From the NCBI GenBank assembly GCA_903920205.1, contig CAIXLI010000063.1:7913-71912 (forward strand): DNA of 64,000 bases, given 5' to 3'. Both the position numbers and the translations under genes were made by a program. The DNA comes from an uncultured Pseudomonadota bacterium (lineage in GTDB: Bacteria > Pseudomonadota > Alphaproteobacteria > UBA9219). Position 1 is the first letter of the stretch. Every line of letters begins with the position of its first letter. The notes under the pieces are model-generated. The model made no database searches. It was not told the origin of the DNA and worked only from the letters and a program-made list of their open reading frames with translations. This document shows, piece by piece, positions 6,170-64,000 of this stretch.

Positions 6170-6993
6170 AGCGTTTCCCTTTTAACCATTCACCTCTTTA
6201 ACGGCAAAGAGGCATGAAAGTAATAGGGATTTCGGGCTTCTCCCCTATACTGTGCGGATATTGCGATAGCGCGCATTGAGAGAGAACGGATTTATTTGAA
6301 TGCCAAAATATGTTTCCATTAAAAGGGCGGTTCTTGCCTTCGGCGCAAGCGCGAAGGAAGCCTGCCGTCATCCGCGCTGTACAGTAGAAAAATACGGGAT
6401 CAACATTGCGAGCTTCGTATATATTCTTGGTAGCGGCGTTCAAGGCCATATTGGTCTTACGACAGACACGTGGAACGATATTGGGGCAGGAGTCCTAAAC
6501 GGTTCTGGTTGTACGGTTTCTTTGATGGCAGGGCACACATCGGCAGGCATTGCGATCTCTTTCCTAATGACTGTTCCTGCTGTTGTCCTTGCTCGATGGG
6601 AAGGGATGGAGGCTCATGATCTTGGCGCCTTTCTGTCGTTGCGGCCTGTGCCCTTGGGCAGGGACTGTTTGTTGTCAGCAAGCCCCTGATCGAAAAGTTT
6701 AAAGAATCGTCATATGCGGTTTTGCGTCAAACGCTTGGCAACCCGCGTCGATTGGCGGCCGCGACTATGATTTGCTGCGTGCAGCTTCCCTGTTTATTTG
6801 ATCGACTGGCACAGGGGAAACCCGAAGAGGCCTTCCCCTTCCTTGTATTTTCGGGAGCTCATGTTTTTTCCGCTTTTTCCAAGCCTGCGAATATGGACAT
6901 GCCTTCTCTTTCAGATAAGCCTGCGCGGCGAACCCACAAAATGAGGCTGCTTCCTTTAAAGGCGTATGGGTAGAAGGCTTTTAATGAGGCTTC

Positions 6994-8295
6994 TTGCGAA
7001 ACCAAGGGTTTTCGTGCAAAATCAGCACTCACATTTTACAAGCTTACGTGCGGTGGTTTATGAGCGGAAATAATCAAGGCGAGCCAGGCATACTTCTTCT
7101 GATGGTGATCGCGCTATTTGCGGGACTTGGCTGGTTGATCTGGCATGTCAGCCGAGAATTCTGGCTTGATTACGTTTTTCGCTGGCTGCGATTTGGCGAA
7201 TTATGGATCATCAATTTTTTTGCTCCTCACTATGATGCTTGCCTCGTCTGGCTGCGCGAAGCGCGGATTAACGATTCCTCGCCGTCGCCGCGTATTGTCG
7301 GGTTGACTAATGCTTGTTTCGGCACTGCGTATTTGAACCATGTTCCGCGTAACGAGATTCTTTCCTATTACCAGCTAGCGATGCCGCCGATTGCAGCGTT
7401 GGGCGCGGAGGCGATGAACTATTTTCGGTGGCCGATCTCTGCGGTTCTTTTCACGGCGGGGTCTTACGAATTGTTTTTTTCGCCGCATACCAAATTCATG
7501 ACCAAGCACACGCTTGAGAGTCTGATCTCGACGCAGGCGAAAATGTGGCCGATCATTTCGCCGATCGTGAAATTTAATCCGTCGAAAACGGGGCGCATTT
7601 TGGGAGATAAGGTTCCCGACAAACTACCCCTTTTCGCCGAAGCGTTATCGCCCGAGGAGTGGATCGCATGGAATCGCATTCCCCTTGCCAACGGCATTCC
7701 TGACCGCGATGCATCGCGGCGTGCTTTTATTCGTCAAATGGGGCCGCGTTGGAATGGTATTGGCTCTCTCCCTTTGCATATAAGGGCTGTTTTGGCGGCT
7801 TTCGCCCTTAAGGGGGCGCAGAAACGTGACGAAAGCGATAATCTTCTGGGGCGTCTGGCGTTATGCTGGTCGCCAGAAAAAGGCTTTCGTCCGGATTCCA
7901 CCCTGGTGTCGGAAATCGACAAAATCCTGCACGATCCCGATGTCGGCGGAAAAATAGTTCCTATTGCTGATCAACATGCGTGGCGCACGACAGCGGTGTT
8001 GGGCGTTTTGCTGTGGGCGCGATCGATGGGCGGCGTTTTGGCTCCGGCGCAATTTTTGTGGATCCGTGGGGAAGATCGCGCCTTGTGGTATCCCTTGAAC
8101 AATCTTGGTCGCCGCTCGTTCCACAGCGAAGGCGCGGGTGCCATGGCGCATTTTATGGCGGAACAAGCCGCCAAAAAGCCGCTTCCCATTCCCCGTGTGG
8201 ACACGGCGATTGTTACGCTCAACACCTATCTGCACGATCCTGATAAACGTCCCGTGCCGATTCCTCAGCGCGAAGAAACAAGCGCTCACGCCTAA
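6994..8295 (+). CDS. inner-membrane protein with N-terminal transmembrane helices and a large cytoplasmic domain; tentatively DotM/IcmP-like (TrbA-like) type IVB secretion component
   Basis: 433 aa (411 aa if the start is MSGNNQ at 7060). Hydrophobic helices near residues 30-50 and 60-80, no nucleotide-binding motif. Size and topology fit DotM/IcmP. The assignment leans on the unambiguous DotH/G/F-like genes elsewhere in the window. No motif-level confirmation was possible. Confidence 0.3.
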   Translation: MRNQGFSCKISTHILQAYVRWFMSGNNQGEPGILLLMVIALFAGLGWLIWHVSREFWLDYVFRWLRFGELWIINFFAPHYDACLVWLREARINDSSPSPRIVGLTNACFGTAYLNHVPRNEILSYYQLAMPPIAALGAEAMNYFRWPISAVLFTAGSYELFFSPHTKFMTKHTLESLISTQAKMWPIISPIVKFNPSKTGRILGDKVPDKLPLFAEALSPEEWIAWNRIPLANGIPDRDASRRAFIRQMGPRWNGIGSLPLHIRAVLAAFALKGAQKRDESDNLLGRLALCWSPEKGFRPDSTLVSEIDKILHDPDVGGKIVPIADQHAWRTTAVLGVLLWARSMGGVLAPAQFLWIRGEDRALWYPLNNLGRRSFHSEGAGAMAHFMAEQAAKKPLPIPRVDTAIVTLNTYLHDPDKRPVPIPQREETSAHA

Positions 8296-8322: not shown

Positions 8323-8778
8323 ATGAAAAAAAAGACTGAAGCCAGACTTAAGGGCTCGATGCTGACTGTCGGATTTTATTCTGCAAAATCGCCTCTGATC
8401 TGGCGCTTCGATCTTGATCGCAATCACAGCTTTACGCTTTCCTTGCAAGGGGAAGAAGGCGATTGGGAGTTAGGCGTGGCAACGCCCAAGGGCGATTTTA
8501 TTTCTATCGCGCATTTCGACGAGCGCGAAGACGCCGAAGATGCTTTGGTCAAAGTTGAAAAGTCGCTGGCGAGCAAGTGGGGCGGAACGGCGCTCGTTCT
8601 TAAGGTTGTGGCTTTGGTGGCGCTTGTTGCGGTCGGCATTGTTCTGGCTGTGGGGCTCTATGGTTTCATCGTCTCGCAGCAGCCTTCCAGTTCTGCGGTC
8701 GGTAAAGCTGGGGCTCCTGCGCAAATGCGAGATGGGGTCCCTCTCTCTGCCGACGACGTTTTGCAACCCCCGCGGTAA
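8323..8778 (+). CDS. hypothetical protein with a C-terminal transmembrane helix (151 aa)
   Basis: ORF 28 bp downstream of the DotM-like gene. Carries the hydrophobic stretch LVLKVVALVALVAVGIVLAVGLYGF. Confidence 0.4.
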   Translation: MKKKTEARLKGSMLTVGFYSAKSPLIWRFDLDRNHSFTLSLQGEEGDWELGVATPKGDFISIAHFDEREDAEDALVKVEKSLASKWGGTALVLKVVALVALVAVGIVLAVGLYGFIVSQQPSSSAVGKAGAPAQMRDGVPLSADDVLQPPR

Positions 8779-8962: not shown

Positions 8963-9448
8963 TTACTGAGCAACGACGGTCACAGCGCGGCGGTTCTGCG
9001 CCCAAGCTGCTTCGTTGCTTCCAACGACTGCGGGGCGTTCCTTGCCATAGCTGATGGTGTTGATGCGCGCGGCAGCAATGCCAGCGGCGACCAAGTAGTT
9101 CTTGGCAGCCGTTGCACGGCGTTCGCCCAGCGCAAGGTTGTATTCACGCGTGCCACGTTCGTCGGCATGACCTTCGAGCGTGATCTTCGCGGTGGCGTAC
9201 TTCTTCAGCCAGGTCGCTTGACGATCGAGCGTCGCTTGAGCTTCCTTGCTCAGATCGGACTTGTCGAAGCCGAAGAATACGCGGTCGCCAACGTTGACAA
9301 CCAGATCTTCTTGCGTGCCTGGACGAGCTGCGCCCTTGACGCCGCCGCCTGCGCCGTTCGCGCCGCCTTCACCTTCGTTAGAGCCGGTCGTGTCGCAAGC
9401 AGACACGAGGACGAGAGCCGCCATAAGGCACAAAAGCTTTTTAAACAT
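8963..9448 (-). CDS. pal: peptidoglycan-associated lipoprotein Pal (OmpA-family)
   Basis: Lipobox LVSAC, then LEGHADERGTREYNLALGERRA...NRRAV, a canonical Pal/OmpA C-terminal domain. Confidence 0.8.
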   Translation of the reverse strand: MFKKLLCLMAALVLVSACDTTGSNEGEGGANGAGGGVKGAARPGTQEDLVVNVGDRVFFGFDKSDLSKEAQATLDRQATWLKKYATAKITLEGHADERGTREYNLALGERRATAAKNYLVAAGIAAARINTISYGKERPAVVGSNEAAWAQNRRAVTVVAQ

Positions 9449-9911: not shown

Positions 9912-10298
9912 TTAGGAAAAGCTTGTTTTCGTCAGAGCTTCCGCTGGACGTCTGTTGTAGTTCGCGTTGCCGTTCATGCTAAGCCCCAACGTAAGACCAT
10001 AGCCATGACCCGCGTTGCTGTGTCCTGCTTCGGTTGCGGCAAGGCGGAAATAACGCATAACAAAAACGCGGATCGCCGCCGTCAGGGATGTATCTTCCAG
10101 TTTTTGCAGCGATACAGTCGTACATATTTGATGAATGTTAGCTCGTTCACGCAAACAGATTTCGCGTAAGCCATCCCACATTTCCGGCTCAAGCCGAATG
10201 CTGGTGCGGCGGCCGGAAACGACGACGTTTCGGCTGACTAAGGTGCTGCGCGTGTAGGCTTTATCTTCTCCAGGACTAAGCTTTTCAACATTAAACAT
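9912..10298 (-). CDS. ribbon-helix-helix domain protein (alphaproteobacterial RHH family, often misannotated as aryl-sulfate sulfotransferase)
   Basis: GRRTSIRLEPEMWDGLREICLRERANIHQICTTV is the characteristic RHH core of this family. Confidence 0.6.
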   Translation of the reverse strand: MFNVEKLSPGEDKAYTRSTLVSRNVVVSGRRTSIRLEPEMWDGLREICLRERANIHQICTTVSLQKLEDTSLTAAIRVFVMRYFRLAATEAGHSNAGHGYGLTLGLSMNGNANYNRRPAEALTKTSFS

Positions 10299-10413
10299 AT
10301 GAGAGGCCCCATGAAGTTACGCGGCGGTGCATACGGAACGAATGCACCCATAGGTTGCATGCAAACACACGCGCGCAACTAGATCAATAAGTATTTGGTT
10401 AATTATGTTGTTT

Positions 10414-10923
10414 TTATGTCTCGCTTGCGAAACGATCTTCAGCGATTTTATGCTGAATGGCGTCTAGCGCACCCTGCAGAATATAAGCCGCCGCCATTTT
10501 ATCGACCACGGCGTCGCGCCGTTTACGGCTCATATCGTCGGAAATCAAGAATCTTTCGACGGCTGCTGTCGAAAGTCTTTCGTCCCAGAACACAACGGGA
10601 AGATCGGGATCAGGCAAAACATTCTTTTGCGATAAATTGCGGATAAAAGCGCGCGCTGCCTGCGCTGTCGCGCCCTCGGTGCCGTCCATATTTTTAGGCA
10701 AACCGACAACAAATCCGCCGATTTCCCTGTCTCGAAGCAGGGCCACAAGCGCTGCTGCGTCGAGGGGAAATTTTTTACGTGTGATAGCGCCTATCGGTGA
10801 AGCAATGCGTAAATTGGGGTCGGACACGGCGACGCCTATAACCTTGCTGCCGTAATCGAGCCCCAGCAGGCATTGGTTTTTGTGCAAAAGCGCGGGAATT
10901 TCTGACAGGTTGCGAATGATCAT
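10414..10923 (-). CDS. ruvX: Holliday junction resolvase-like protein RuvX/YqgF
   Basis: LLGLDYGSKVIGVAVSD N-terminal RNase H-like motif. 169 aa. Confidence 0.85.
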   Translation of the reverse strand: MIIRNLSEIPALLHKNQCLLGLDYGSKVIGVAVSDPNLRIASPIGAITRKKFPLDAAALVALLRDREIGGFVVGLPKNMDGTEGATAQAARAFIRNLSQKNVLPDPDLPVVFWDERLSTAAVERFLISDDMSRKRRDAVVDKMAAAYILQGALDAIQHKIAEDRFASET

Positions 10924-11097
10924 GTTGGATGATAGTGATAGACACGTTTTCTTGAAAACCTAAAAATTCTTCGCCGCAAGGTACAGAGAACTAAAGTCGA
11001 TCAACCCGCTGCAGCCAAGAGATATTGAGAGTTTTCGCGTTGACGTAGTATAAAGTGTTTCCACTCTTTCAGCAAAGCAAAGTTCCGAAAGAAGCCT

Positions 11098-11385
11098 ATG
11101 ACCATAGATCAAAAAATCGTCGCTAAAATCGCCCATCTCGCGCGCTTGAAAATTCCTGCTGAAGAGCAAATCCATGTCGCGGGGGAATTGAACAATATCC
11201 TGAACTGGGTCGAGCAATTGAACGAAGTCGATGTCTCCGGCGTCGAGCCTTTGGCCAGCGTCAACGATACCTCGCTGCGTGCTCGCGCCGATGTGGTGAA
11301 TGACGGGGATAGATCTGAAGACATTCTTGCCAACGCACCTGCCAGTACCGCTGATTTCTTTACCGTTCCGAAAGTTGTCGAATAA
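11098..11385 (+). CDS. gatC: Asp/Glu-tRNA amidotransferase subunit C
   Basis: 95 aa with the GatC motif [13 protein letters not shown]. Directly precedes gatA. Confidence 0.9.
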
Positions 11386-12866
11386 TGACCAAGCTTACCG
11401 ATCTGACGATTACCGAGGCTCTGCACGGATTGAACGATAAAAAGTTCAGCGCAGCAGAATTGACAGAAGCGCATATCTCCGCTGTGGAAAAAGCACGGGG
11501 ATTGAACATATTCATCACCGAAACACCGGATGGCGCGCGCCGCCAAGCGCAAGAATCCGATGCGCGGCGCGCAAGCGGCAAGGCGGGCGCATTAGACGGC
11601 ATTCCTCTGGCAATCAAGGATTTGTATTGCACTAAAGGCGTGCGCACGACAGCCGCCAGCAAAATTCTTGGCAATTTCGTGCCGACTTATGAATCAACCG
11701 TCTCGCAAAAACTCTTCGATGCGGGAAGCGTGATGTTGGGCAAGGTCAATCTGGACGAATTCGCCATGGGTTCCGGCGGCGTGACCAGCGCGTTCAATCC
11801 CACCATCAGCCCGTGGTCAGGCAGCGATCCGGCCAATGCCGCACGCAAGCTTGTGCCCGGCGGGTCGAGCAGCGGTTCGGCGGCTTCGGTCGCGGCGCGG
11901 ATTGCTATGGGCGCGACGGGAACGGATACGGGCGGTTCGATCCGCCAGCCTGCCTCGGTTACTGGCATTGTCGGGATCAAGCCGACTTATGGGCGTTGTT
12001 CGCGCTGGGGCATTATCGCTTTCGCTTCGTCGCTTGATCAGGCTGGGCCTATGACGCGCGATGTGGCGGATGCCGCTTTGATGTTGCGCGTGATGGCGGG
12101 GTTTGACGAAAAAGATTCGACCTCTGTCGATGTGCCTGTGCCCGATTATGTTGCGGCGTTGGGCAAGTCGATCAAGGGGTTGAAAGTTGGCCTGCCACGC
12201 GAATACCGCATCGACGGGATTAATCCTGAAGTGGACGCCCTGTGGCACAAAAGCGCCGAGATGCTGCGCGAGGCAGGAGCGGAAGTGGTCGATATTAGCC
12301 TGCCGCATACCAAATACGCTTTGCCTGTTTATTATATCATCGCGCCTGCCGAAGCTTCATCGAATCTGGCGCGGTATGACGGCGTGCGTTTTGGCTTGCG
12401 TGTCGCAGGAGAAAATCTGGACGATATGTATGCCTCGACCCGCTTCGCGGGGTTTGGCAAAGAAGTACGGCGCCGGATTTTGATCGGCACTTATGTGTTG
12501 TCTGCCGGATACTACGATGCCTATTACCGCAAGGCTCAGCGCGTGCGGCGTTTGATCCGCAACGACTTTGTCGAAGCGTTTAAGAAGTGCGATGTCATTC
12601 TGACTCCCGCTTCCCCGGGGACGGCCTTTGCGATTGGCGAAAAGCAAGATGATCCGTTGCAGATGTATCTGGAAGACGTTTTTACGGTCACGCTGAATCT
12701 GGCGGGCTTGCCTGGTATCTGCCTTCCAGTAGGACTGGCGCAGAATGGTTTGCCCATGGGCATGCAGTTGATCGGTCGCGCTTTCGACGAAGAAACACTT
12801 TTCACGGCAGCTTCGGCCCTTGAAAAAGCGGCAAAGTTTACTCACAAACCTCCTTTTACGGCATAA
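11385..12866 (+). CDS. gatA: Asp/Glu-tRNA amidotransferase subunit A
   Basis: Amidase signature [13 protein letters not shown]. 493 aa. Confidence 0.95.
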
Positions 12867-20173: not shown

Positions 20174-20320
20174 GTGAATTCACAATCCCTTGTTGCCGTT
20201 ATCGTGGGTGTCTTGCTATTAGTTGTAGCGGGCGGGGCTTTGTGGTTATCAAACGCCCGCGTCATGCCGCCTACGCAAAAGACGGAACTGGCTATACCTG
20301 ATGAGCGGATTCCTCGCTAG
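20174..20320 (+). CDS. possible small membrane protein (48 aa, GTG start)
   Basis: GTG preceded by AGGAG. Encodes one transmembrane helix SLVAVIVGVLLLVVAGGALWL. Overlaps the start of the next gene by 20 bp. Speculative. Confidence 0.2.
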   Translation: MNSQSLVAVIVGVLLLVVAGGALWLSNARVMPPTQKTELAIPDERIPR

Positions 20321-53096: not shown

Positions 53097-53302
53097 GGCA
53101 CGTTCCTTATATATAGGTGATTATGGGCGAGGGTATATCAGCGCGGGCGCGGCGTGTAAAGGCGAGGATGCTTCAGGAACAAACATCGGCGAAAGAGGAG
53201 AATATCTATTATTTACTTTCACGGGGGTATGTTATATTCGGCCATTCGCACAAGGCGGCATAGTATTTAATAATAAGGCAATAATGTATGGGGGGACATG
53301 TA

Positions 53303-53740
53303 ATGTCGGAACAAGAATTATTTATTGAGGCTAGACAAACTCTGCCTGTAAGCGGCCTCAGCTGGTTGGGGCGTTTTTCCCCGCGTGTAGAGACGGGCTC
53401 TAAAATGATTTCTGTGCGGAGTATTAACTGTATCGTAAAAGGACGCGTTATTGAGAGCGGTTCGAAGATAAGCAATGAGCCTCTCCACGAGCATCAAGCA
53501 AGGCGTGTAGATGACGACAAATCCGTGCTTGAAAAGATGAAAAAGGCTGGGTTAGCGGTTTTTAGCGTGAACGCGGATACTTATGTGAATCTCAATCAAG
53601 TCAGGAGCATTGTGCCTGAACGGGAACGCGCGCAGATAGTTTTTTGTGATGGACAGAGCTTGAATACGGAAATGCCCTTTGAGCGCGCTCGTTCCAAGTT
53701 TGTAGCAACGACAACTCAGTCCAAGGCCGTGCCAACTTAA
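53303..53740 (+). CDS. hypothetical protein (145 aa) in an AT-rich islet
   Basis: RBS GGGGGGA before ATG at 53303. Local GC about 46% by eye. AT-rich promoter-like DNA at 53100-53300. No domain recognised. Confidence 0.4.
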   Translation: MSEQELFIEARQTLPVSGLSWLGRFSPRVETGSKMISVRSINCIVKGRVIESGSKISNEPLHEHQARRVDDDKSVLEKMKKAGLAVFSVNADTYVNLNQVRSIVPERERAQIVFCDGQSLNTEMPFERARSKFVATTTQSKAVPT

Positions 53741-54194: not shown

Positions 54195-54226
54195 CAACTT
54201 CCCGTTTTTTGTTCGCTTAAGAATTA

Positions 54227-54262
54227 TCGCCGCGCATCAAAATGCGCGGCGAATTTTTTTGT
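54227..54262 (+). terminator. rho-independent terminator of rpsT
   Basis: Stem TCGCCGCGCAT/ATGCGCGGCGA (11 bp) with loop CAAA, followed by T7. Confidence 0.85.
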
Positions 54263-54698
54263 CTTCTTTTTCATTTTTTTTCATCACAAATTTTCGCACA
54301 ACAGTGCAATGTGAATCCTTAAAAAAATCGGACGAGGTTAATGCGCCAGAAAACGAAAAAGATGCGCGCACTCTTCGGTGTGTATGCGACGAAAATTTTT
54401 TTGGCGAAGCAAGAAATATTTTTATCACGTTCCCTCTTCGGACCTGTGGACAAAGACGTAAGGTTTGATCTATGGTCGAGTTGTCTTCTGGTTATGAGTT
54501 TCATCGTGAATGCGGATCGAAAAAATATGAGAAGCTATCAATCACACCGTATCAACGATTCTTATACGCCAAAGCTCGTCGCCGCCTTCTGCGCGACACG
54601 TCCCCTTACTTAGTTCTTTTTGCGAAACCCCGAAGAATCTTTCTTCGGGCTGTGCGATATCTTTTGCTTTTCGGCAAGTCAGTTCGATCCATGGAGTT

Positions 54699-56147
54699 GT
54701 GATGAAGGTTCAGGCAGCAAGCGCGGTCTCGGAAGATATGGGTGCGATCTCCCCAACGGCGTGGGATGATGTGCGCACGGCGTTGCGCGATCGTTTCGGC
54801 GAAACCGCGTATCGCCGCTGGCTTGAGCCGATGACCAACGACATTGTGTGCGATGCTTCTGGCGTCCATCATGCGACCATGATTTTGCCGACCCGTTTTA
54901 TGCGCGACTGGGTCGAAGCGCATTACGGCGACATGATCCGTTCCCTGTGGCAGCAAAATTCTCCGCGCGGCAATGTTTCTTTCTCTGTCATGTCGCCGTT
55001 GGCCAAAGCGGCGCAGGCCAAGAGCGCGATCGATACAGCGGCTACGGCCCCCATCGCGCCTTTGGGACGCGCTCTGGCTCCGGCTCAGGCTTCGTCTTCC
55101 TCTTCCTCGGGATTTGCCGGAGATTTGTCCGCTGATCTTGATCCGCGTTTTACCTTTGATAATTTCGTCGTCGGTAAACCGAACGAATTGGCTTATGCCG
55201 CCGCGCGCCGCGTTGCCGACACGGAAAACCCCGCCTTCAATCCGCTGTTCCTTTATGGCGGCGTCGGTTTGGGCAAGACCCATTTGATGCACGCCATCGC
55301 CTGGCATATACGCACGAATTATCCGCATCGCCGCGTCATCTATATGTCGGCGGAAAAATTTATGTATCAGTTCGTGCGCGCGCTGCGTTTCAAAGACACG
55401 GTTTCGTTCAAGGAACAATTTCGCTCTGTCGACGTCCTGATGATCGACGATGTGCAATTCATCGGCGGCAAAGACACGACGCAGGAAGAATTCTTCCATA
55501 CCTTTAACGCGCTGGTCGACCGCAACCGCCAAGTGATCGTCTCCGCCGACAAATCGCCCCAAGATCTTGACCGCATGGAAGAACGTCTGCGCTCGCGCCT
55601 CGGCTGGGGGCTTGTCGCCGATTTGCATCCGGTCAATTACGAATTGCGCTTAGGCATTCTGCACGCTAAGGCGGACAAGCTCGGCTGCCCCGTGCCGGAC
55701 AAGGTGATGGAATTCCTCGCCCACAAAATCGCGTCGAATGTGCGCGAACTTGAAGGCGCACTGAACCGCATCGTCGCGCACGCCCAATTGGTAGGCCGCA
55801 CGATCTCGCTGGAAATGACGCAGGAAGTTCTCGCCGATATGCTCCGCGCTTCCGAACGTCGCGTCACGATTGACGAAATTCAAAAGAAAGTCGCGGAACA
55901 TTACAATGTCCGCGTCGCCGACATGCATTCCGCCCGCCGCGCCCGCGCCGTAGCGCGTCCGCGTCAGGTGGCGATGTATCTGGCGAAACAACTAACTCCG
56001 CGCTCTCTGCCGGAAATCGGCCGTAAATTCGGTGGACGCGACCACACCACCGTTATCCACGCCGTCCGCAAGATCGAAGAACTCTCAGCCTACGACGCAG
56101 CCTTCCGCGAAGACGTCGAATTGCTAAGGCGTTTGCTCCAGAATTAA
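54699..56147 (+). CDS. dnaA: chromosomal replication initiator DnaA
   Basis: Walker A GGVGLGKTHLMHAI, sensor motifs and the domain IV helix-turn-helix. 482 aa. The 430-bp AT-rich region upstream holds DnaA-box-like TGTGGACAA at 54445-54453. Confidence 0.95.
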   Translation: MMKVQAASAVSEDMGAISPTAWDDVRTALRDRFGETAYRRWLEPMTNDIVCDASGVHHATMILPTRFMRDWVEAHYGDMIRSLWQQNSPRGNVSFSVMSPLAKAAQAKSAIDTAATAPIAPLGRALAPAQASSSSSSGFAGDLSADLDPRFTFDNFVVGKPNELAYAAARRVADTENPAFNPLFLYGGVGLGKTHLMHAIAWHIRTNYPHRRVIYMSAEKFMYQFVRALRFKDTVSFKEQFRSVDVLMIDDVQFIGGKDTTQEEFFHTFNALVDRNRQVIVSADKSPQDLDRMEERLRSRLGWGLVADLHPVNYELRLGILHAKADKLGCPVPDKVMEFLAHKIASNVRELEGALNRIVAHAQLVGRTISLEMTQEVLADMLRASERRVTIDEIQKKVAEHYNVRVADMHSARRARAVARPRQVAMYLAKQLTPRSLPEIGRKFGGRDHTTVIHAVRKIEELSAYDAAFREDVELLRRLLQN

Positions 56148-56764
56148 GAAAACTGCGGCGTTGGGATCCCTGCGTACCATTTCAGCAAAGAGGTCGTTAT
56201 CTCTGGCTGCGAGGGGGGCGGCTTCGGCAACCCGATCTGTGCAGCTGCCTTTAAAACGTTGGTCAAAATTCCCTCCGACACGTCATCGGACAATATCTTA
56301 ACATAAAGAGGGGGAAGTGCTGGCTTAAATCCAGCGTTTTCCCTATTCACGGATTTTAGCGCCTGCTTCCAATCGTCAAGCAGATACCCGTTCTTGAAAA
56401 AAGAAACGCTATTTGCCACCCACGGGGCGCGCCACAAACGAGCTATAACGGACTCTTCATGCTCAGATTTATGGAACAAGGACTCGTTCTTCGTATTATT
56501 AAGGGCTTGCAAACGCCCAATGGGCGCGGTCAAGATGCCTGCCAACTCGGGCCCAAGTTTGATCAAGGGGACAAGTTGCTCAGCCGTTAGCTTGGTTTGG
56601 ACAACGGCATCGTTTTGTTGACACGCATTTCCGAACACAGCCTCTGAATTCTGGAATAGGTCTCTAGTAATTATGCCGATACCATTATGGGGGCTCAAAG
56701 TCAGGACGACATGCTCATCGGCAGTAAAAAGATATAAACTATCGTTGTGAAAAGACTTAGGCAT
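56144..56764 (-). CDS. hypothetical protein (206 aa), lower GC, convergent with dnaA
   Basis: Clean ORF overlapping the dnaA stop by 4 bp. No domain recognised. GC about 48% by eye. dnaN is not present here. Confidence 0.4.
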   Translation of the reverse strand: MPKSFHNDSLYLFTADEHVVLTLSPHNGIGIITRDLFQNSEAVFGNACQQNDAVVQTKLTAEQLVPLIKLGPELAGILTAPIGRLQALNNTKNESLFHKSEHEESVIARLWRAPWVANSVSFFKNGYLLDDWKQALKSVNRENAGFKPALPPLYVKILSDDVSEGILTNVLKAAAQIGLPKPPPSQPEITTSLLKWYAGIPTPQFS

Positions 56765-56948: not shown

Positions 56949-57359
56949 TTATTTCACCCCCACCAGCATTGGCATCGCAAACACATATAAACAGCTAAAG
57001 CTGGCGATGGTTAAAACCAGATAGGTCAGCTGTGCGCCAAGGAAACGCAGGGCGTCCGAGTTGCGCGTATGGTTGCTTCCAAAAGCATGCATCAAGCGGG
57101 CGGTAACTAAAAGGGATCCCAATGCATGCAGGGCAAAGGTAGGAGCGCCGCTCGCTTCGACCAGCCCGATCAAAAAAAGCGTTAACGGCACATAATCCGT
57201 AAAGCTTGAGACTAAAGCCTCGGCGCGGCGCAAATCGGGGTCGCTTTGCTTGCCCTGACCTGCGGCATGAACCCAGCTTTTCATCATGTTAAAAGAAAGG
57301 ACGACCAGCAAAAGGCCAAGAAGACCAGCATAAAGTAGGACAATATGAACAGAGGCCAT
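56949..57359 (-). CDS. MAPEG-family inner membrane protein (YecN-like)
   Basis: MASVHIVLLYAGLLGLLLVVLSFNMM... About 136 aa with four helices. Pattern matches YecN. Confidence 0.6.
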   Translation of the reverse strand: MASVHIVLLYAGLLGLLLVVLSFNMMKSWVHAAGQGKQSDPDLRRAEALVSSFTDYVPLTLFLIGLVEASGAPTFALHALGSLLVTARLMHAFGSNHTRNSDALRFLGAQLTYLVLTIASFSCLYVFAMPMLVGVK

Positions 57360-57653
57360 GAAACCCTCCTTAACAAGGTTAATCCCGCTCTTTCCGTGCA
57401 AGAACGGGGTTTGACGCAACAATCTCGCCCGTCTGACAGGCTAGACAAGACAAAAAAAGGCCGCAAAACCGTCTCTCGGTTTTTATTGTTACAAGGGCTT
57501 GAATAACACAAGAAACTGACGGTATAAACCTACTATTAACTTTCATGTGGTCAAACAATAAGATTGGATAAATTGGTTTGTCTGATTTGGGGATGTTCTT
57601 TGCTGTACATACTGCCTAATTGCCGGGTTAGCCCGGTTTCACGCACCCTCTTG

Positions 57654-58787
57654 ATGGCTAGTGCCTTGCTGGCTTTTTCGGGGGCGCCTTTTTCTGCGCA
57701 TGCTGCGAATGGCAGCGCCGTTTCTGACGCCATAGCCACGTTGTCGGCGCAGCCCACGGGGCAGGGGCGAGCATCCACCTATCCTTCTTCTGCCACGCCA
57801 GCGGCTCCGGTGGTATCGCCTTCATCAGCGGGGGCTCTACCGTCAGCAGTCCCTTCAAGCTCTTCCGGCATTGATATTCCTTCGCCGCCGCCGCCCTCGG
57901 CTTTTTCTTCAGACGCCAACCAACTCGCTGTTCAGGCAGAACAAGCCGCACTGCAAGCGCAAGCGCAGGCCGATAATGACGAACACAAGCGCGAACAGGA
58001 GCATAGCTCTAAATCCTTTGATAAGGCCGAACGCGGATTGATGCCTATGTCTCCCGACCAGGTGCGCGAACTTATGCGCCGGCTCGAACAAACGCAGTCA
58101 GCGGCGCAGATTCCTTATGCAGGTCCGCCCAAGGGACAAACGCGTGTTTCCACCTTGTCCCTCGATCCCGGTGTCGAGCCTCCGCAGATTAATCTTAACT
58201 CCGGCTATGTCACGACGATAGCGATGGTCGATGCGACGGGTGAACCATGGCCTATTTTGGATGTCGGCGTCGGAGGTAATTTCGAAGTTTCTCCGACTCA
58301 GGCAGGAACGCATGTCGTTCGCGTCATGCCTTTGACCCGCATGGGGACAGGCGATCTGTCCGTTTTGCTCAAGGACTTGCCGACGCCGGTCATTTTCCGT
58401 CTTTCGTCAGGCGGTCCTAACGTCGACCTCCGCTATGACGCGCGTATCGGCAAAATGGGCCCTGGCGCCAAGCCGCAGATCATTAGCCGCCCACGCCTTG
58501 AAGCGGGCGATGAGACATTGACGTTGCTTCTTGAAAATGCACCACCGAATGCCGCTAAACGTGTCAAGGTTAGCGGGCTTGATTCCAGAACTAAAGCCTG
58601 GTCTATCGGCGACAAAGTATATGTGCGCACGCCCCTCAGCCTGCTGTCTCCTGCGTGGAATGCCAGTGTGGCCTCGGCGGACGGCACGACGGTTTATGAG
58701 ATAGGCTCTGCGCCCGTTCTTTTAATGTCCGATAATGGCGCTATGGTGCGCGCCCAGATTTCGCGGGACGAAGATCATGACAAATAA
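57654..58787 (+). CDS. dotH: type IVB secretion outer-membrane core protein, DotH/IcmK-like (VirB9-like C-terminal domain)
   Basis: Signal peptide MASALLAFSGAPFSAHA, then a Ser/Pro/Ala-rich linker and a C-terminal beta-rich domain. Directly precedes the DotG-like and DotF-like genes in the Legionella order icmK-icmE-icmG. A TTG at 57564 is an alternative start. 377 aa. Confidence 0.6.
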   Translation: MASALLAFSGAPFSAHAANGSAVSDAIATLSAQPTGQGRASTYPSSATPAAPVVSPSSAGALPSAVPSSSSGIDIPSPPPPSAFSSDANQLAVQAEQAALQAQAQADNDEHKREQEHSSKSFDKAERGLMPMSPDQVRELMRRLEQTQSAAQIPYAGPPKGQTRVSTLSLDPGVEPPQINLNSGYVTTIAMVDATGEPWPILDVGVGGNFEVSPTQAGTHVVRVMPLTRMGTGDLSVLLKDLPTPVIFRLSSGGPNVDLRYDARIGKMGPGAKPQIISRPRLEAGDETLTLLLENAPPNAAKRVKVSGLDSRTKAWSIGDKVYVRTPLSLLSPAWNASVASADGTTVYEIGSAPVLLMSDNGAMVRAQISRDEDHDK

Positions 58788-60315
58788 TCTCGAAAACGAA
58801 AATAACGACGATTTCATCGAACCTGAGATCGGCGCGTCCGAAGAAGGCTCGTCGCGCGGCGGTATGGCCGGTAATCTGGCTGAAGCGTGGCGCACGCGTC
58901 CGTTTTTCAAGCTCATCGTTCTGATCGTTGCCGTTTTTGCGGTGGGCGTGGCGGGGATTAGCTTTTTTGGTGGCAACAATACGGCGGGGAACGAGGTTGC
59001 ACGCTTAGGCAAGCCTCCTGCTCTTAAAGAAGCCCCCGGCGGCGCGGCAACGCCCTATATGCGCCAGCAAACAGAAATGGCGAATAACGAGCGTTCCGAG
59101 CAGGCGATCGCCAACGGCGGCAGCGCCATCCCGACGCCAATAGGCCAGACGATGGATATCGGCAGCCTTGGTGGCACGGAAAAGAAAGAAGACCCGCTGA
59201 AAGAACTGCGCATCGAGACTGACATGCTGAAAAAGCAGATTCAGCAGCAACAGGTTCAACAGCAACAACAACAGGCCCAGCAGCGTCCTCCCGAGCAATT
59301 TGACAACTCTTTGGCCGAAGCGATGCAGCGCCAAATGCAGCAACTCATGGAAAGCTGGACGCCCAAGGGAATTAAGAACGTAGTCGTGATACGGGCAGAG
59401 GATTTAAAGGCCGAACAAGAAAAAGCGACCCAAGCTTTGGCGACAACCACCGCGACAGCCGTTTCCTCTACGGAAGCGACCGCACCCAAGATCGTGGTCA
59501 GCGCAGGCACGGTCAGCTATGCCCAGCTCTTGACGGAAGCCAATTCGGATGTTCCAGGTCCCATCCTTGCCCAGATCGTGTCCGGTCCCTTGTCTGGCGC
59601 ACGCGCGATTGGCGGTTTTCAAGTCGCCATGGGCTATGAAAAGTATCTTGTGCTAAAATTCAACCTTGCTGACAAAAAGGGCAAAGATTACCAAATTAAC
59701 GCTGTCGCCCTTGATCCCGATACGACTTTGGGCGGCATGGCGACCGAGGTTGACGAACGCTACTTTACGCGCATCGTTCTTCCCGCTGCCGCTGGTTTCT
59801 TGGAAGGCATGGGACGGGCGTTGGGGCAAAGCAATACGTCGGTTACGACCAACGGCACGACGTCTCTCTCTTCGGTGGCGGGCAACGGCTACAAGCAGGG
59901 CATCTATAACGGATTGGGAACCGCTGCGGAAACAATGAGCTCGTTCTTTCAGAACGAGGCCAATTTGACCAAACCGTTGGTGCGCGTTGCGGCGGGCACG
60001 CCTTTGGGCATATTCTTTGTCACGCCTGTGATGGAGCCTTCGGCGAGTAACGGGGGAAATCAGCAAAATATCCCTAACGGAGGCAATGGTCCCAACGGCA
60101 ACACCAACTACCCTGGCACGACCGTCAACGGTTATGGCGCAAGCCTTCCCGGCGGTGGTATGCCCTATCCGAATTATGCGACGCCATCTTCCAATCGGAA
60201 CAACTACCCTGGCACGTCACCCTTCGGCGCCCCTTCCTACGGCAACGCGTCCTATGGCGGCAATGCCTATGGGGCGATGCAAGCTTCGCCTTACTCTCAG
60301 AATTATGGACAATAG
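58777..60315 (+). CDS. dotG: type IVB secretion core protein, DotG/IcmE-like (VirB10/TrbI C-terminal domain)
   Basis: N-terminal transmembrane helix FFKLIVLIVAVFAVGVAGISFF, then a Gln-rich coiled coil (QIQQQQVQQQQQQAQQ). The TrbI/VirB10 signature is KIVVSAGTVSYAQLLTEANSDVPGPILAQIVSGPLSGARAIGGFQ...YEKYLVLKFNLA...INAVALDPDT..GGMATEVDERYFTRIVLPAAAGFLEGMG. It is followed by a G/N/Y/P low-complexity tail of about 90 aa. Overlaps dotH by 11 bp. Confidence 0.75.
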   Translation: MTNNLENENNDDFIEPEIGASEEGSSRGGMAGNLAEAWRTRPFFKLIVLIVAVFAVGVAGISFFGGNNTAGNEVARLGKPPALKEAPGGAATPYMRQQTEMANNERSEQAIANGGSAIPTPIGQTMDIGSLGGTEKKEDPLKELRIETDMLKKQIQQQQVQQQQQQAQQRPPEQFDNSLAEAMQRQMQQLMESWTPKGIKNVVVIRAEDLKAEQEKATQALATTTATAVSSTEATAPKIVVSAGTVSYAQLLTEANSDVPGPILAQIVSGPLSGARAIGGFQVAMGYEKYLVLKFNLADKKGKDYQINAVALDPDTTLGGMATEVDERYFTRIVLPAAAGFLEGMGRALGQSNTSVTTNGTTSLSSVAGNGYKQGIYNGLGTAAETMSSFFQNEANLTKPLVRVAAGTPLGIFFVTPVMEPSASNGGNQQNIPNGGNGPNGNTNYPGTTVNGYGASLPGGGMPYPNYATPSSNRNNYPGTSPFGAPSYGNASYGGNAYGAMQASPYSQNYGQ

Positions 60316-60372
60316 CCCTTTCTCGGGTAAACTCAGGCCGTCCGGTCTGATAAAAATCGCAGGAGTTTAGCT

Positions 60373-61494
60373 ATGACCGATATCTATGGCTCGGAGCCGC
60401 ATGATCACGAGATGGAGCATGACGACGCGTTAACCCATGATGGTGACATTGTGCATGAACCGCCTCCCGAATATGAATTTTCTGACGAGAACGGCTCTGC
60501 GATAGAACAGCCCGAAGAAGACGTTATCCCTTCATCCGAGGCGGGCTCGCCGCGTCGTTCGCCCTTTTTGCCGATAGCGGCAGCCCTTGGCGGAGTCTTG
60601 TTGCTGGGGGCTGTGGCTTGGTGGCAATTTGGCGGCGTATCGTCCTCTCCGCCTCCTCCCGTCACTAGAACGGCCTCGCCCATCCTTCCGGTAACCCCCC
60701 CGCCTAATGGGGCCCCCGCTCCTTCGTTGAACGCGGCGGACGCATCCTCTGGCGTCGCTCCAAAAACTTCTTCAACAGTGACGCAAGACAAGGATTCCAG
60801 CGGATCTTCGGCTCTTGTCTCTTCCGGTGTTGCTTCTTCCATGCCTAGCGGCGCGGCACAACAAGCCAAACCAGCCGATGCGTCTGTCGATGTCCCTGCG
60901 CCGACTCCTTCGGCGGCTTTCTCACTGCCTGCGCCGACAGTGCCGAACGACAATGCCGATCATCGCATCGAGATGCTGACGGCGCGCATCGATAATTTGC
61001 AAAATGCGCTCGATCAAGCGAATCAGCAATTAGGCCAGATGACAAATGTCCTCGCCGCATCTTCCGGTATCGGCGCTTCATCTACCGCCTCCGCTAAGGA
61101 TTTACAGGACAGGATAAACAAGCTTGAACAGAAAATAGCCACGATGAACGCCGTTTCTTTGACGCCTACTGCGGCTTCGCCGTCGTCCGGCATATCCGGG
61201 ATTGATGTTTCGCCCCCGCCGCGCAAAGCGGTGGCATCCGTTCCCAGACTCAAGGCGGTGCACAAAACCTCGCGCCAACATGTCAAAAGAGCTCCTGTGG
61301 AAGATCAAGCTGAGAGCAATTGGATTCTACGCGCGGCATCGCCCGGGCAAGCTTGGGTCGCTACCAGCGCGACGACGCATGAGTTGAAACAGGTTCAGGT
61401 CGGCGACAAGCTGTCCGGAATCGGGCGCGTTACCGCCATCCAGAAGCAGGGCGATGCCTGGATTGTGCGCGGAACCAAGGGGTCAATTCAGTAG
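60373..61494 (+). CDS. dotF: type IVB secretion inner-membrane core protein, DotF/IcmG-like
   Basis: RBS AGGAG before ATG at 60373. Acidic N-terminus, one transmembrane helix FLPIAAALGGVLLLGAVAWWQF, a Ser/Pro-rich region, a coiled coil, and a C-terminal beta domain WVATSATTHELKQVQVGDKLSGIGRVTAIQKQGDAWIVRG. Position after the DotG-like gene matches icmG. Confidence 0.5.
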   Translation: MTDIYGSEPHDHEMEHDDALTHDGDIVHEPPPEYEFSDENGSAIEQPEEDVIPSSEAGSPRRSPFLPIAAALGGVLLLGAVAWWQFGGVSSSPPPPVTRTASPILPVTPPPNGAPAPSLNAADASSGVAPKTSSTVTQDKDSSGSSALVSSGVASSMPSGAAQQAKPADASVDVPAPTPSAAFSLPAPTVPNDNADHRIEMLTARIDNLQNALDQANQQLGQMTNVLAASSGIGASSTASAKDLQDRINKLEQKIATMNAVSLTPTAASPSSGISGIDVSPPPRKAVASVPRLKAVHKTSRQHVKRAPVEDQAESNWILRAASPGQAWVATSATTHELKQVQVGDKLSGIGRVTAIQKQGDAWIVRGTKGSIQ

Positions 61495-61500
61495 GCAAGC

Positions 61501-61540
61501 AAGGCGGGGAGGAAAAAACCTTCCCTCGCCAGCTTTTTAT
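61501..61540 (+). terminator. probable rho-independent terminator after the dotH-dotG-dotF operon
   Basis: Imperfect stem GGCGGGGAGG/CCTTCCCTCGCC with one mismatch and loop AAAAAA, followed by AGCTTTTTAT. Confidence 0.5.
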
Positions 61541-61684: not shown

Positions 61685-64000
61685 ATGATCACTTCTCTCG
61701 CGCGCAAGCTGTTTGGTTCCCATAACGACCGTGTTTTGCAAGGGCAAACGCCACTTGTCGCCCGCATCAACGCGCTGGAACCCCAGTTCAAAGCTTTGTC
61801 CGACGAAGCCCTCCGCGCCAAAACGGCGGAGTTTCGGGAACGTCTGGCTAACAAGAACGGCAAAGGCGGAGAGGCCCTCGATTCCCTGCTGCCGGAAGCC
61901 TTCGCCACCGTGCGCGAAGCCGCTTGGCGCGTCTTGGGACAGCGCCCGTTCGATGTCCAATTGCGCGGCGGGATGGTTCTGCATCAGGGCAAAATAACCG
62001 AAATGCGCACGGGCGAAGGCAAAACGCTGGTCGCCGTCTTGCCGTCCTATCTAAACGCCCTGACCGGCAAGGGCGTCCATGTCGTCACGGTCAACGACTA
62101 TCTTGCCAAGCGCGACAGCGGATGGATGGGCCGCATCCATAATTTCCTCGGCCTAACGGTCGGTTGTATCGTGCATGGTTTGGACGACAGCGAACGCCGT
62201 GCGGCCTATGCCGCCGATATCACCTATGGCACCAATAACGAATTCGGCTTCGACTATCTGCGCGATAATATGAAATTCGCGCAAGGCGATTTGGTGCAAC
62301 GCGCCTTCAACTTCGCCATTGTTGACGAAGTGGACAGCATCCTGATCGACGAAGCGCGCACGCCGCTGATTATCTCCGGCCCCGCCGAAGATTCGTCGGA
62401 ACTCTATATGCGCGTCAACGAAATCATCCCCAAACTCGACGCAGTTGATTTTGAAAAAGACGAGAAAAGCAGAACCGTCTCGCTGACCGAAGTGGGCAAC
62501 GAAAAGATCGAGCTTCTTCTGGGCAAAGCGGGGCTTCTGACTCCTGGCGGCGGGCTCTACGATCCCGCCAACGTCATGATCGTGCATCACGTCAATCAGG
62601 CTTTGCGCTCCCATACGATGTTTACACGCGACATCGATTACATCGTCAAGAACGACAAAGTCGTCATCATCGACGAATTCACAGGACGCATGATGGAAGG
62701 TCGCCGCTATTCAGACGGACTGCACCAAGCGCTGGAAGCCAAAGAACATGTAGCGATCCAGCGTGAAAATCAGACCCTCGCCAGCATCACCTTTCAGAAT
62801 TATTTCCGACTCTATCCCAAACTCTCGGGCATGACGGGCACCGCCCTGACCGAAGCGCCAGAATTTGCCGAGATTTACAATCTGGAAGTCGTCGAAATGC
62901 CGACCAATGTGCCGGTGCGCCGCGACGACATGAACGACGAAGTCTATGGCACAATGGCCGAAAAGAACGTCGCCATCGTGGCGCGTATCGAAGATTGCCG
63001 CAAGCGCGGGCAACCCGTTCTCGTCGGCACCGTGTCGATCGAAAAATCGGAAGCGCTGGCGGAAGTGCTGAAGAAAAAAAGCATCCCGCATAACGTGTTG
63101 AACGCCCGCTTCCACGATCAGGAAGCCACGATCATCGCGCAAGCCGGACGTCCGGGTGCCGTCACCATCGCCACCAACATGGCGGGACGCGGCACGGACA
63201 TCCAACTCGGCGGCAATTTCGACGCACGCCTTGCGGAACTTTCCGCGCAAGGCGAACCGGACGCGAAAACCGTCACCGCTTTGCGTCAGGAAATCGACGA
63301 AGCGCGCGAAAAAGTGCGTGAAGCAGGCGGCTTGTTTGTAATCGGCACTGAACGCCATGAATCGCGCCGCATCGATAATCAATTGCGTGGTCGTTCGGGC
63401 CGTCAGGGCGATCCTGGCGCGTCCATTTTCTTCCTTTCGCTCGAAGACGATTTGATGCGCATCTTCGGCGCGCACAATCAAACGCAGTCGATCTTGGCAA
63501 AGCTGGGGCTGCGCGACGGCGAAAAGATCGCCCATCCCTGGATCACGACGGCTTTGGCGAAAGCGCAGCAAAAGGTCGAAGGCCGCAATTTCGACATGCG
63601 CAAAAACCTGCTGAAATTCGACAATATCATGAACGACCAGCGCAAGGTCATCTATGAACAGCGCCGCGATATTATGGGGGCGGCGGATGTCTCCTCCATC
63701 ATCCGCGAACTGCGCGAAGAAGTGATTCACGAATTCGTCAGCAAAGCCATTCCCCCTCATTCCTATGTTGAACAATGGGATATCGCCGGATTGCACGAAC
63801 GGGTCAAAGACGTTCTGGCGCTTGATATGCCCATCGCGGAATGGGCGGCGGAAAACAATATCGCCGAAGTTGAGATCGAAGAACGCATTCGCCGTGCGGC
63901 AGAGGAAAAGCTGAAAGAAAAGACAGCCATTCTTGACGAAGGCGCTATGCGCCACGCGGAAAAAGCGGCCCTGCTCGGCACGCTCGATCAGGCGTGGAAA
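61685..64000 (+). CDS. secA: preprotein translocase ATPase SecA, 5' portion (continues beyond the window end)
   Basis: [19 protein letters not shown]...[20 protein letters not shown] is Walker A, and [19 protein letters not shown] is also present. Absent from the ORF track because there is no stop inside the window. Confidence 0.9.

Follow-up and report, generated by a model that had tools for sequence, protein, structure and literature searches.

A dotH-dotG-dotF operon between a MAPEG gene and secA, probable core of a dispersed type IVB secretion system in uncultured Alphaproteobacteria

Why does an alphaproteobacterium known only from metagenomic DNA carry, among its housekeeping genes, three genes that resemble the core of the Legionella Dot/Icm machine? 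The question is raised by a stretch of 64,000 nucleotides (nt) of contig CAIXLI010000063.1 (the window, to which coordinates refer unless a relative is named), in which three co-directional open reading frames (ORFs) occupy positions 57564-61540. The original prediction had placed three genes there and had read them as dotH-dotG-dotF (icmK-icmE-icmG; dotHGF in the following) of a secretion system of type IVB (T4BSS), whose other components would be dispersed in the genome. Adding the flank available from the same organism (~24 kb), ~88 kb could be inspected in total. We argue below that dotHGF is, with high probability, a functional core operon and a fragment of a vertically inherited, dispersed type IVB cluster, which likely serves protein translocation.

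The first gene, dotH/icmK (57600-58787, + strand), encodes a secreted periplasmic/outer-membrane core protein. Its product matches the Pfam family PF12293 (T4BSS_DotH_IcmK) with an E-value of 9.6e-72 over 237 of 238 profile positions (241 bits, cut-off 25), and its residues 94-368 align to residues 80-357 of IcmK/DotH from Legionella in the solved structure (chain 6x62_DH, E 8.4e-43). The maximal ORF begins at 57564, and two starts have been used within it: the ATG at 57654 yields the protein of 377 amino acids (aa) listed in the ENA gene calls, whereas the TTG at 57600 yields the 395 aa of the NCBI cluster representative (P0001). A signal-peptide protein of about 377 aa had been predicted; however, the longer form (395 aa, TTG 57600) appears more likely, since relatives have kept the signal peptide's Arg-rich n-region. 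This stretch, which precedes Met31, shows conservation at the protein level in the related loci L001-L003, which have no equivalent internal methionine. The signal peptide ends with ...RVSPVSRTLLMASALLAFSGAPFSAHA, followed by ANG.

The second gene, dotG/icmE (58777-60315, + strand), encodes a short form of DotG with 512 aa, and its start overlaps the end of dotH by 11 nt (ATGACAAATAA). The VirB10/TrbI C-terminal domain that had been proposed for this protein was recovered with PF03743 (TrbI; E 3.9e-14, 53.4 bits, cut-off 35), and an alignment with the solved Legionella DotG of 1048 residues (7muc_AG, E 1.9e-22) pairs residues 155-417 with 774-1044, besides a weak N-terminal stretch. The NCBIfam model NF033900 (DotG/IcmE) gave an E-value of 3.7e-52 and 177.6 bits; this match covers only the last 270 model positions, i.e. 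the C-terminal part, and hence lies under the full-length cut-off. The IncI1 TraO model gave an E-value of 9e-29 and 100.8 bits. The protein consists of an N-terminal transmembrane (TM) anchor (residues 43-64), a Gln-rich coiled linker, the VirB10/TrbI C-terminal domain and a tail; the long central repeat region of the Legionella type (protein of ~1048 aa) is not present in it. The tail, which follows the VirB10/TrbI domain, comprises 98 aa (60022-60312) and is of low complexity, rich in Gly, Asn, Pro and Tyr. DotG orthologues throughout the lineage have tails of similar composition, 84-164 aa in length, which could constitute a surface-exposed or peptidoglycan-interacting extension.

The third gene (60373-61494, + strand; 373 aa) is probably dotF/icmG, as indicated by four weak, concordant lines of evidence. 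It is separated from dotG by a spacer of 57 nt, and AGGAG precedes its ATG. Translational coupling, which had been assumed for all three genes, thus applies in the strict sense to dotH-dotG only. The architecture is that of the predicted single-pass membrane protein (bitopic in the inner membrane) with a C-terminal beta domain: From the acidic N-terminus onward come a single TM helix, then a linker rich in Pro and Ala, a coiled-coil segment and, at the C-terminus, a conserved beta domain of 70 aa with the motif WVLRAAxPxxAWV...VGDxLxGIGxV. On this C-terminal domain, NF038218 (IcmG_DotF) matched with an E-value of 3.1e-6 and 27 bits, to be compared with a cut-off of 200. Searching the PDB sequences directly with phmmer gave no DotF match; a family profile was required, and for a profile built from 14 orthologues the best PDB sequence was the DotF chain 7muc_AF (E 5.7e-4, three collinear segments). 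The C-terminus was also modeled by means of single-sequence AlphaFold2 (pLDDT 62 overall, ~70 in the beta domain). When this model was compared with the whole PDB by using Foldseek, two DotF chains of 7muc ranked first and second (Foldseek prob 0.99 and 0.97); the superposition gave a root-mean-square deviation of 1.8-1.9 Å over 55 columns at 27% identity (E 0.16). Finally, its neighbors in relatives are without exception dotG on one side and a TraQ/DotE-like gene on the other.

Relatives were collected in two scans. The first, which considered one genome per GTDB species, returned 18 loci, all from uncultured metagenome-assembled genomes (MAGs) labeled Alphaproteobacteria, Rhodospirillaceae, Rhodospirillales, Pseudomonadota, Bdellovibrionales and, in one case, Propionivibrio. 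The second searched JGI metagenomes with a 991-aa dotO-like gene and returned 33 loci. The order icmK-icmE-icmG, which is that of Legionella as predicted, holds throughout the 18 genome loci, and the JGI loci have it as well. In the window, dotHGF lies between a MAPEG-family membrane protein gene upstream (56949-57359, - strand, divergent from dotH; PF01124, E 2.9e-15) and secA downstream (61685-64000, + strand; recognized from its translation and cut by the window end); the end of dnaA (54699-56147, + strand) is 1.5 kb away. The setting originally described, between these two genes and near dnaA, was thus confirmed. Moreover, L001, L002 and L003 show the order dnaA-MAPEG-dotH-dotG-dotF-secA again, each of them keeping the MAPEG-dotH adjacency, and L005 and L006 show it in part. 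In these loci the identity is 85-98% for DnaA and SecA, 68-83% for DotH, 58-66% for DotG and 34-45% for DotF; for SecA, the values in L001, L002, L003 and L005 are 85-88%. SecA of L019 has 915 aa and the full set of SecA Pfam domains. Since the match lists of DotH and DnaA have at least 20 contig sizes in common, nine of them not exceeding 29 kb, the linkage of dnaA and dotHGF appears to be widespread.

In a neighbor-joining tree of DotH, the dnaA-linked arrangement forms one clade, whose sister group (L004, L007, L009) retains dotI upstream; the clades with a full cluster fall outside both. From this nested position it follows that the arrangement seen in the window is a derived, fixed break-up of a larger cluster; the order dnaA-MAPEG-dotHGF-secA is derived, monophyletic and conserved.

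Marks of a mobile element were not found around the operon. Within 10 kb to the left and right of dotHGF there is no relaxase, type IV coupling protein or integrase, relaxase families are missing among the annotated genes of the window and its flanks, and a tRNA scan of the 64 kb was empty. Repeats around dotHGF occur only at chance level, with no flanking direct repeats. The sole tyrosine recombinase of the window is a XerC/D-type gene at a distance of 35 kb from dotHGF. The GC content of the dot genes (0.56-0.58) equals that of dnaA and secA (window: 0.54). Among the scanned proteins encoded next to the clusters of relatives, neither relaxase nor other conjugation-specific families were detected. 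The original prediction had argued from missing hallmarks against a recently integrated conjugative element; by these findings and its conserved flanks, dotHGF is not an integrative conjugative element (ICE) or a genomic island.

The full cluster is present in L012, L013 and the 33 JGI loci. It comprises 12 dot/icm genes with a small regulator-like gene, c4, in front, and the recurrent order in the JGI loci is c4-dotI-dotI'-dotH-dotG-dotF-dotE-dotP-dotN-dotO-dotM-orf151-dotL, followed by lipopolysaccharide glycosyltransferase genes. The two DotI copies match PF11393 (E 2e-47 and 3e-31), DotE matches DUF6750 and IncI1 TraQ (E 4.5e-12), DotN matches PDB entry 5x42 (E 9e-19), and DotL matches NF041447 (TrbC, E 2.8e-106) as well as Pfam domains of coupling proteins. 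The DotO candidate, a conserved protein of 991 aa, has a Walker A motif; its orthologue in L038 weakly matches VirB4 (TIGR00929, E 6e-5) and TraC (E 2e-3). A dotO-like ATPase gene also occurs alone, in L052, L054 and L059. In the latter (10001-12631), it lies between phaR and prfB-fabF-era-rnc, flanked as well by genes for an ion channel and an M23 peptidase, which indicates that other members of the lineage likewise place single dot genes among housekeeping genes.

Two further observations concern the clusters of relatives. The product of c4 (7348-7914 in L012, 931-1608 in L028, and orthologues; 155-225 aa), whose gene lies directly upstream of dotI, is weakly similar to the GcrA cell-cycle regulator and to a treble-clef zinc finger, with E-values of ~1e-3 that are below the cut-off. 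It is possibly a dedicated regulator; a c4 homologue was not found in the window. On the upstream side, the dot clusters of L008 and L012 are adjoined by flagellar hook and hook-associated genes (FlgE-like, FlgK-like), lexA, gltX and comEC. Hence the two organisms are probably motile and not extremely reduced.

The comparison with relatives disclosed a second fragment of the cluster at 7.0-8.8 kb of the window, which is absent from the original prediction. The protein encoded after the DotO-like gene in relatives matched the window at 7.0-7.9 kb, where dotM/icmP is located (7060-8295, + strand). The deduced coupling-complex membrane protein of 411 aa matches PF23127 (DotM_C, E 2.5e-46) and NF033890 (DotM_IcmP, E 9.2e-49). 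dotM comes next after parB, 50 kb from dotHGF, and the parB-dotM adjacency is kept in L026 and L027, the latter on a JGI contig of 585 kb. L026 belongs to contig JAMFSS010000006.1 (264 kb), which also carries the dotHGF genes of L003 at a distance of ~84 kb. Downstream of dotM follows orf151 (8323-8778, + strand), which encodes a conserved partner of 151 aa with a C-terminal TM helix and gave zero family matches in the Pfam and NCBIfam scans. Of the 23 JGI loci with a dotM gene, 18 have an orthologue (26-43% identity) next in line, placed between dotM and dotL; L026 also has one after dotM. Since it is conserved between these two genes and retained beside dotM, orf151 is a candidate T4BSS accessory gene. 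Between parB and dotM, the window has a spacer of 890 nt with an ORF of 129 aa (6300-6690, + strand; ENA assembly call); this spacer is missing in L026 and L027, where dotM follows within ~100 nt of parB. An OmpA-family gene near dotM (8963-9448, - strand) was considered as DotK/IcmN and ruled out, as its product is Pal (TIGR02802, 148 bits, cut-off 125).

How could these pieces work together? Judging from homology to the solved Legionella machine, DotH would be exported by the Sec pathway and become part of the outer-membrane cap and the periplasmic ring. DotG would be anchored in the inner membrane and reach with its VirB10-like C-terminal domain into the outer-membrane dome or channel, and DotF, as a bitopic inner-membrane protein, would join the core via its small C-terminal beta domain. 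Together, the three proteins would form the cap at the outer membrane and the periplasmic ring and connect them to the inner membrane, while DotM would be a member of the DotL coupling complex that recruits substrates. A once contiguous ancestral cluster, running from dotI to dotL in the order given above, would have been broken up in this clade, and its pieces would have become fixed between housekeeping genes: dotHGF between the MAPEG gene and secA, dotM-orf151 after parB. The system would have been passed on vertically. As no relaxase is associated with it, protein translocation is the most likely function, and proteins would be delivered into another cell rather than DNA being conjugated. 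The remaining parts would be encoded at other sites of this genome, and the machine would be assembled.

Several findings weigh against this interpretation. Searching with the DotI, DotE/P, DotN, DotO and DotL proteins of relatives by means of tblastn gave nothing in the window or in the ~24 kb flank (L019-L027), and dotA, dotB, dotC and dotD were recognized in no locus, a dedicated search of full genomes not having been made. Likewise, IcmS/W/Q/R/T/X were not observed, nor were DotA-D in the ~88 kb. Of the coupling complex, DotM is encoded in the window; DotL and DotN were found only in the clusters of relatives, with none detected by tblastn in the window. The dispersal of components, as originally proposed, was therefore corroborated by the dotM-orf151 fragment, and for the remaining parts it stays an inference. 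In addition, the DotO candidate of L012 has no match in Pfam, NCBIfam or the PDB, and the VirB4 match obtained in relatives is weak. The scores that identify DotF are individually weak, and a scan for promoters and terminators around dotHGF gave nothing above shuffled expectation. Ratios of nonsynonymous to synonymous substitution (dN/dS, Nei-Gojobori), which were determined versus L001, L002 and L005, are 0.08-0.12 for dotH, 0.10-0.18 for dotG, 0.17-0.22 for dotF and 0.09 for dnaA; they are rough, because dS is saturated (>1), though far below 1. These ratios, which indicate purifying selection on dotHGF, and the intactness of all five dot-system genes (dotH, dotG, dotF, dotM, orf151) speak in favor of the interpretation.

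A more specific alternative concerns the target of the machine and depends on the identity of the lineage, which is probably Micavibrionales-like, this being a candidate placement. The NCBI names of relatives ("Bdellovibrionales", "Rhodospirillaceae", "Alphaproteobacteria bacterium") are compatible with Micavibrionales; the NCBI taxonomy lists Micavibrio under Bdellovibrionales, which would explain the label "Bdellovibrionales bacterium". Needham et al. 2022 (PMC9418006) mention in one sentence that MacSyFinder detected pT4SSi in seven marine Micavibrionales MAGs. These systems are also of the Dot/Icm type, relaxase-free, and found in uncultured alphaproteobacteria; their gene content and layout are not described there. 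MacSyFinder would detect contiguous clusters, but probably not the scattered dot layout, because it requires co-localization. For the genome of M. aeruginosavorus, no type III or type IV system was reported (PMC3189940). If the lineage is related to obligate epibiotic predators, the Dot/Icm machine might inject effectors into bacterial prey, not into eukaryotic hosts. It would then sit as a fixed part of the chromosome beside dnaA and parB; the weakly GcrA-like gene stands in front of it in relatives. We consider this unlikely; if true, it would be the first type IVB system serving bacterial predation and a candidate for the "leeching" mechanism, and it would undercut the use of the T4BSS as a marker of adaptation to eukaryotic hosts.

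Less probable still is that the DotH-DotG-DotF envelope complex and DotM were retained for another job without a full T4BSS, e.g. as an envelope-spanning scaffold or a contact structure. Such a role would agree with the fact that selection keeps dotHGF while ATPases are unseen in the available sequence, and with two novelties of the lineage, the low-complexity tail of DotG and orf151. However, both novelties also occur in relatives with a full cluster. Furthermore, the lipoproteins DotC and DotD are needed in Legionella for DotH to reach the outer membrane. We know of no precedent for a repurposing of this kind and, to our knowledge, the coupling-complex subunit DotM has no role apart from DotL.

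We regard it as very improbable that dotHGF and dotM are the decaying, non-functional relic of a T4BSS whose other parts were lost in the clade. The cluster is clearly fragmented, and the ~88 kb contain no further dot/icm gene beyond dotHGF and dotM-orf151. Decay is at odds with five intact genes, with dN/dS values of 0.08-0.22 at dS >1, and with the finding that both fragments hold their positions across the clade; the solo dotO gene placed among housekeeping genes in relatives indicates that dispersal without loss occurs. Finally, that dotHGF belongs to a recently integrated IncI-type conjugative plasmid or ICE (MPF-I traN-traO-traP) deserves hardly any credence: DotG does match TraO and is similarly short, and DotE and DotL of relatives match TraQ and TrbC, but the same insertion site and flanks occur in several species-level relatives with diverged housekeeping genes, the GC content is that of the neighbors, relaxase, flanking integrase, tRNA and direct repeats are missing, the DotG model scores far above the TraO model (177.6 versus 100.8 bits), and no conjugation-specific family was seen among the scanned cluster-adjacent proteins of relatives.

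A dispersed type IVB cluster of vertical descent can be compared with known systems. With the Dot/Icm system in Legionella pneumophila and in Coxiella burnetii (icmK-icmE-icmG, region II) it shares homologues of DotH, the C-terminal domain of DotG, DotF and DotM in the same gene order; the clusters of relatives are collinear with icmM/L-K-E-G-C-D-J-B followed by icmP-icmO, and a relaxase is likewise missing. Differences are the alphaproteobacterial host, which is not one of the Legionellales, and DotG, which has 512 aa, lacks the repeat region of ~600 aa and carries an extra tail rich in Gly, Pro, Tyr and Asn, whereas Legionella DotG ends at the domain. DotF is longer (373 aa versus 269 aa), the conserved orf151 is inserted between dotM and dotL, and mini-operons between housekeeping genes take the place of a single cluster in this clade. 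The Tra/Trb system of the IncI1 plasmid R64 (TraN-TraO-TraP, TraQ, TraU, TrbA, TrbC; MPF-I) belongs to the same family of machines; DotG is short like TraO, DotE resembles TraQ, and DotL fits the TrbC model. Unlike R64, the system studied here is chromosomal and vertically inherited, has no relaxase/oriT and no thin-pilus genes nearby, and its DotG and DotM fit the Dot/Icm models better than the plasmid models. A similar genome organization is known from the vir homolog (rvh) of Rickettsiales, a type IVA system that is vertically inherited in alphaproteobacteria and whose genes are scattered as small islands among housekeeping genes. The likeness is restricted to organization, since rvh is of a different class (VirB/D4), has duplicated components and a gene order that is not homologous.

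Among the candidates for missing parts, a divergent PilT/DotB-like secretion ATPase of 324 aa (25296-26267, - strand; PF00437, T2SSE) might be the equivalent of DotB. Its NCBIfam matches, all below the cut-offs, are PilT (8e-29), TraJ (6e-21) and DotB (8e-16), and in the PDB it matches PilT (1.4e-21) and DotB (1.3e-15). The protein is closer to PilT than to DotB; its gene is located between the HU and Bax-inhibitor-1 genes, with no pilus or secretion partner genes nearby, and is unlinked to dot genes in every locus.

By gene content (Pfam annotation of the window genes), the window is ordinary chromosomal DNA. Its first part contains gidA-gidB-parA-parB, gatCAB, cobS, nth, the XerC/D-type recombinase gene, metG, lptD, bipA, folKP, hda and dnaJ, the latter part pth, rplY, prs, rpsT, dnaA, an ORFan, the MAPEG gene, dotHGF and secA; beyond the window end follow an EamA transporter gene, etfAB, pnp and parDE. 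DnaA has the Pfam domains DnaA_N, Bac_DnaA and Bac_DnaA_C and is 74-98% identical to the proteins of many uncultured alphaproteobacterial MAGs; the best 120 DnaA matches are all MAGs, with no cultured organism among them. From the gidAB-parAB-dnaA gene content only, it is reasonable to regard the locus as origin-proximal. A cluster of DnaA boxes that would mark oriC was not found; a single near-consensus box lies in the spacer upstream of dnaA (54195-54698), which is 504 nt long and AT-rich (GC 0.43). Rfam families gave zero matches in the 64 kb.

Some genes of the window resemble no known family. The ORFan between dnaA and the MAPEG gene (56144-56764, - strand; 206 aa, GC 0.486) has no Pfam or NCBIfam match above the cut-off and is missing from this position in L001. 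Further ORFans of low GC content are located at 27195-27833 (- strand, GC 0.44) and 53288-53740 (+ strand, GC 0.48). These low-GC ORFans could be lineage-specific accessory or effector genes. A signal-peptide protein of 605 aa without Pfam or NCBIfam match is encoded at 20301-22118 (+ strand) and abuts the downstream gene of the XerC/D-type recombinase (22118-23140).

The proteins of this T4BSS are already named in databases: NCBI lists DotH homologues as "DotH/IcmK family type IV secretion protein" and DotM homologues as hypothetical, and JGI names the homologues IcmK and IcmP. What is added here is a poorly known alphaproteobacterial lineage and an unusual, dispersed layout; in the literature, we found neither the scattered dnaA-/parB-linked arrangement nor orf151 nor the tail of DotG described. 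Stepwise splitting of the cluster into single genes and mini-operons that lie between essential genes offers a clean case, provided by nature, of operon dispersal without loss, and tools that depend on co-localization would overlook such dispersed systems. In reviews of its evolution, the T4BSS has been treated as a trait of Legionellales and related deep-branching, intracellular gammaproteobacteria, and dates of host adaptation and phagocytosis have been derived from where it occurs (PMC8896642, PMC11338181). At E <= 1e-5, DotH has 377 and DotM 1089 homologues. A large, environmentally widespread and uncultured lineage of alphaproteobacteria would thus bear a type IVB machine as a chromosomal, vertical trait, which implies a broader distribution of these systems and makes it likely that the lineage lives in association with cells, be it as parasite, symbiont or predator.

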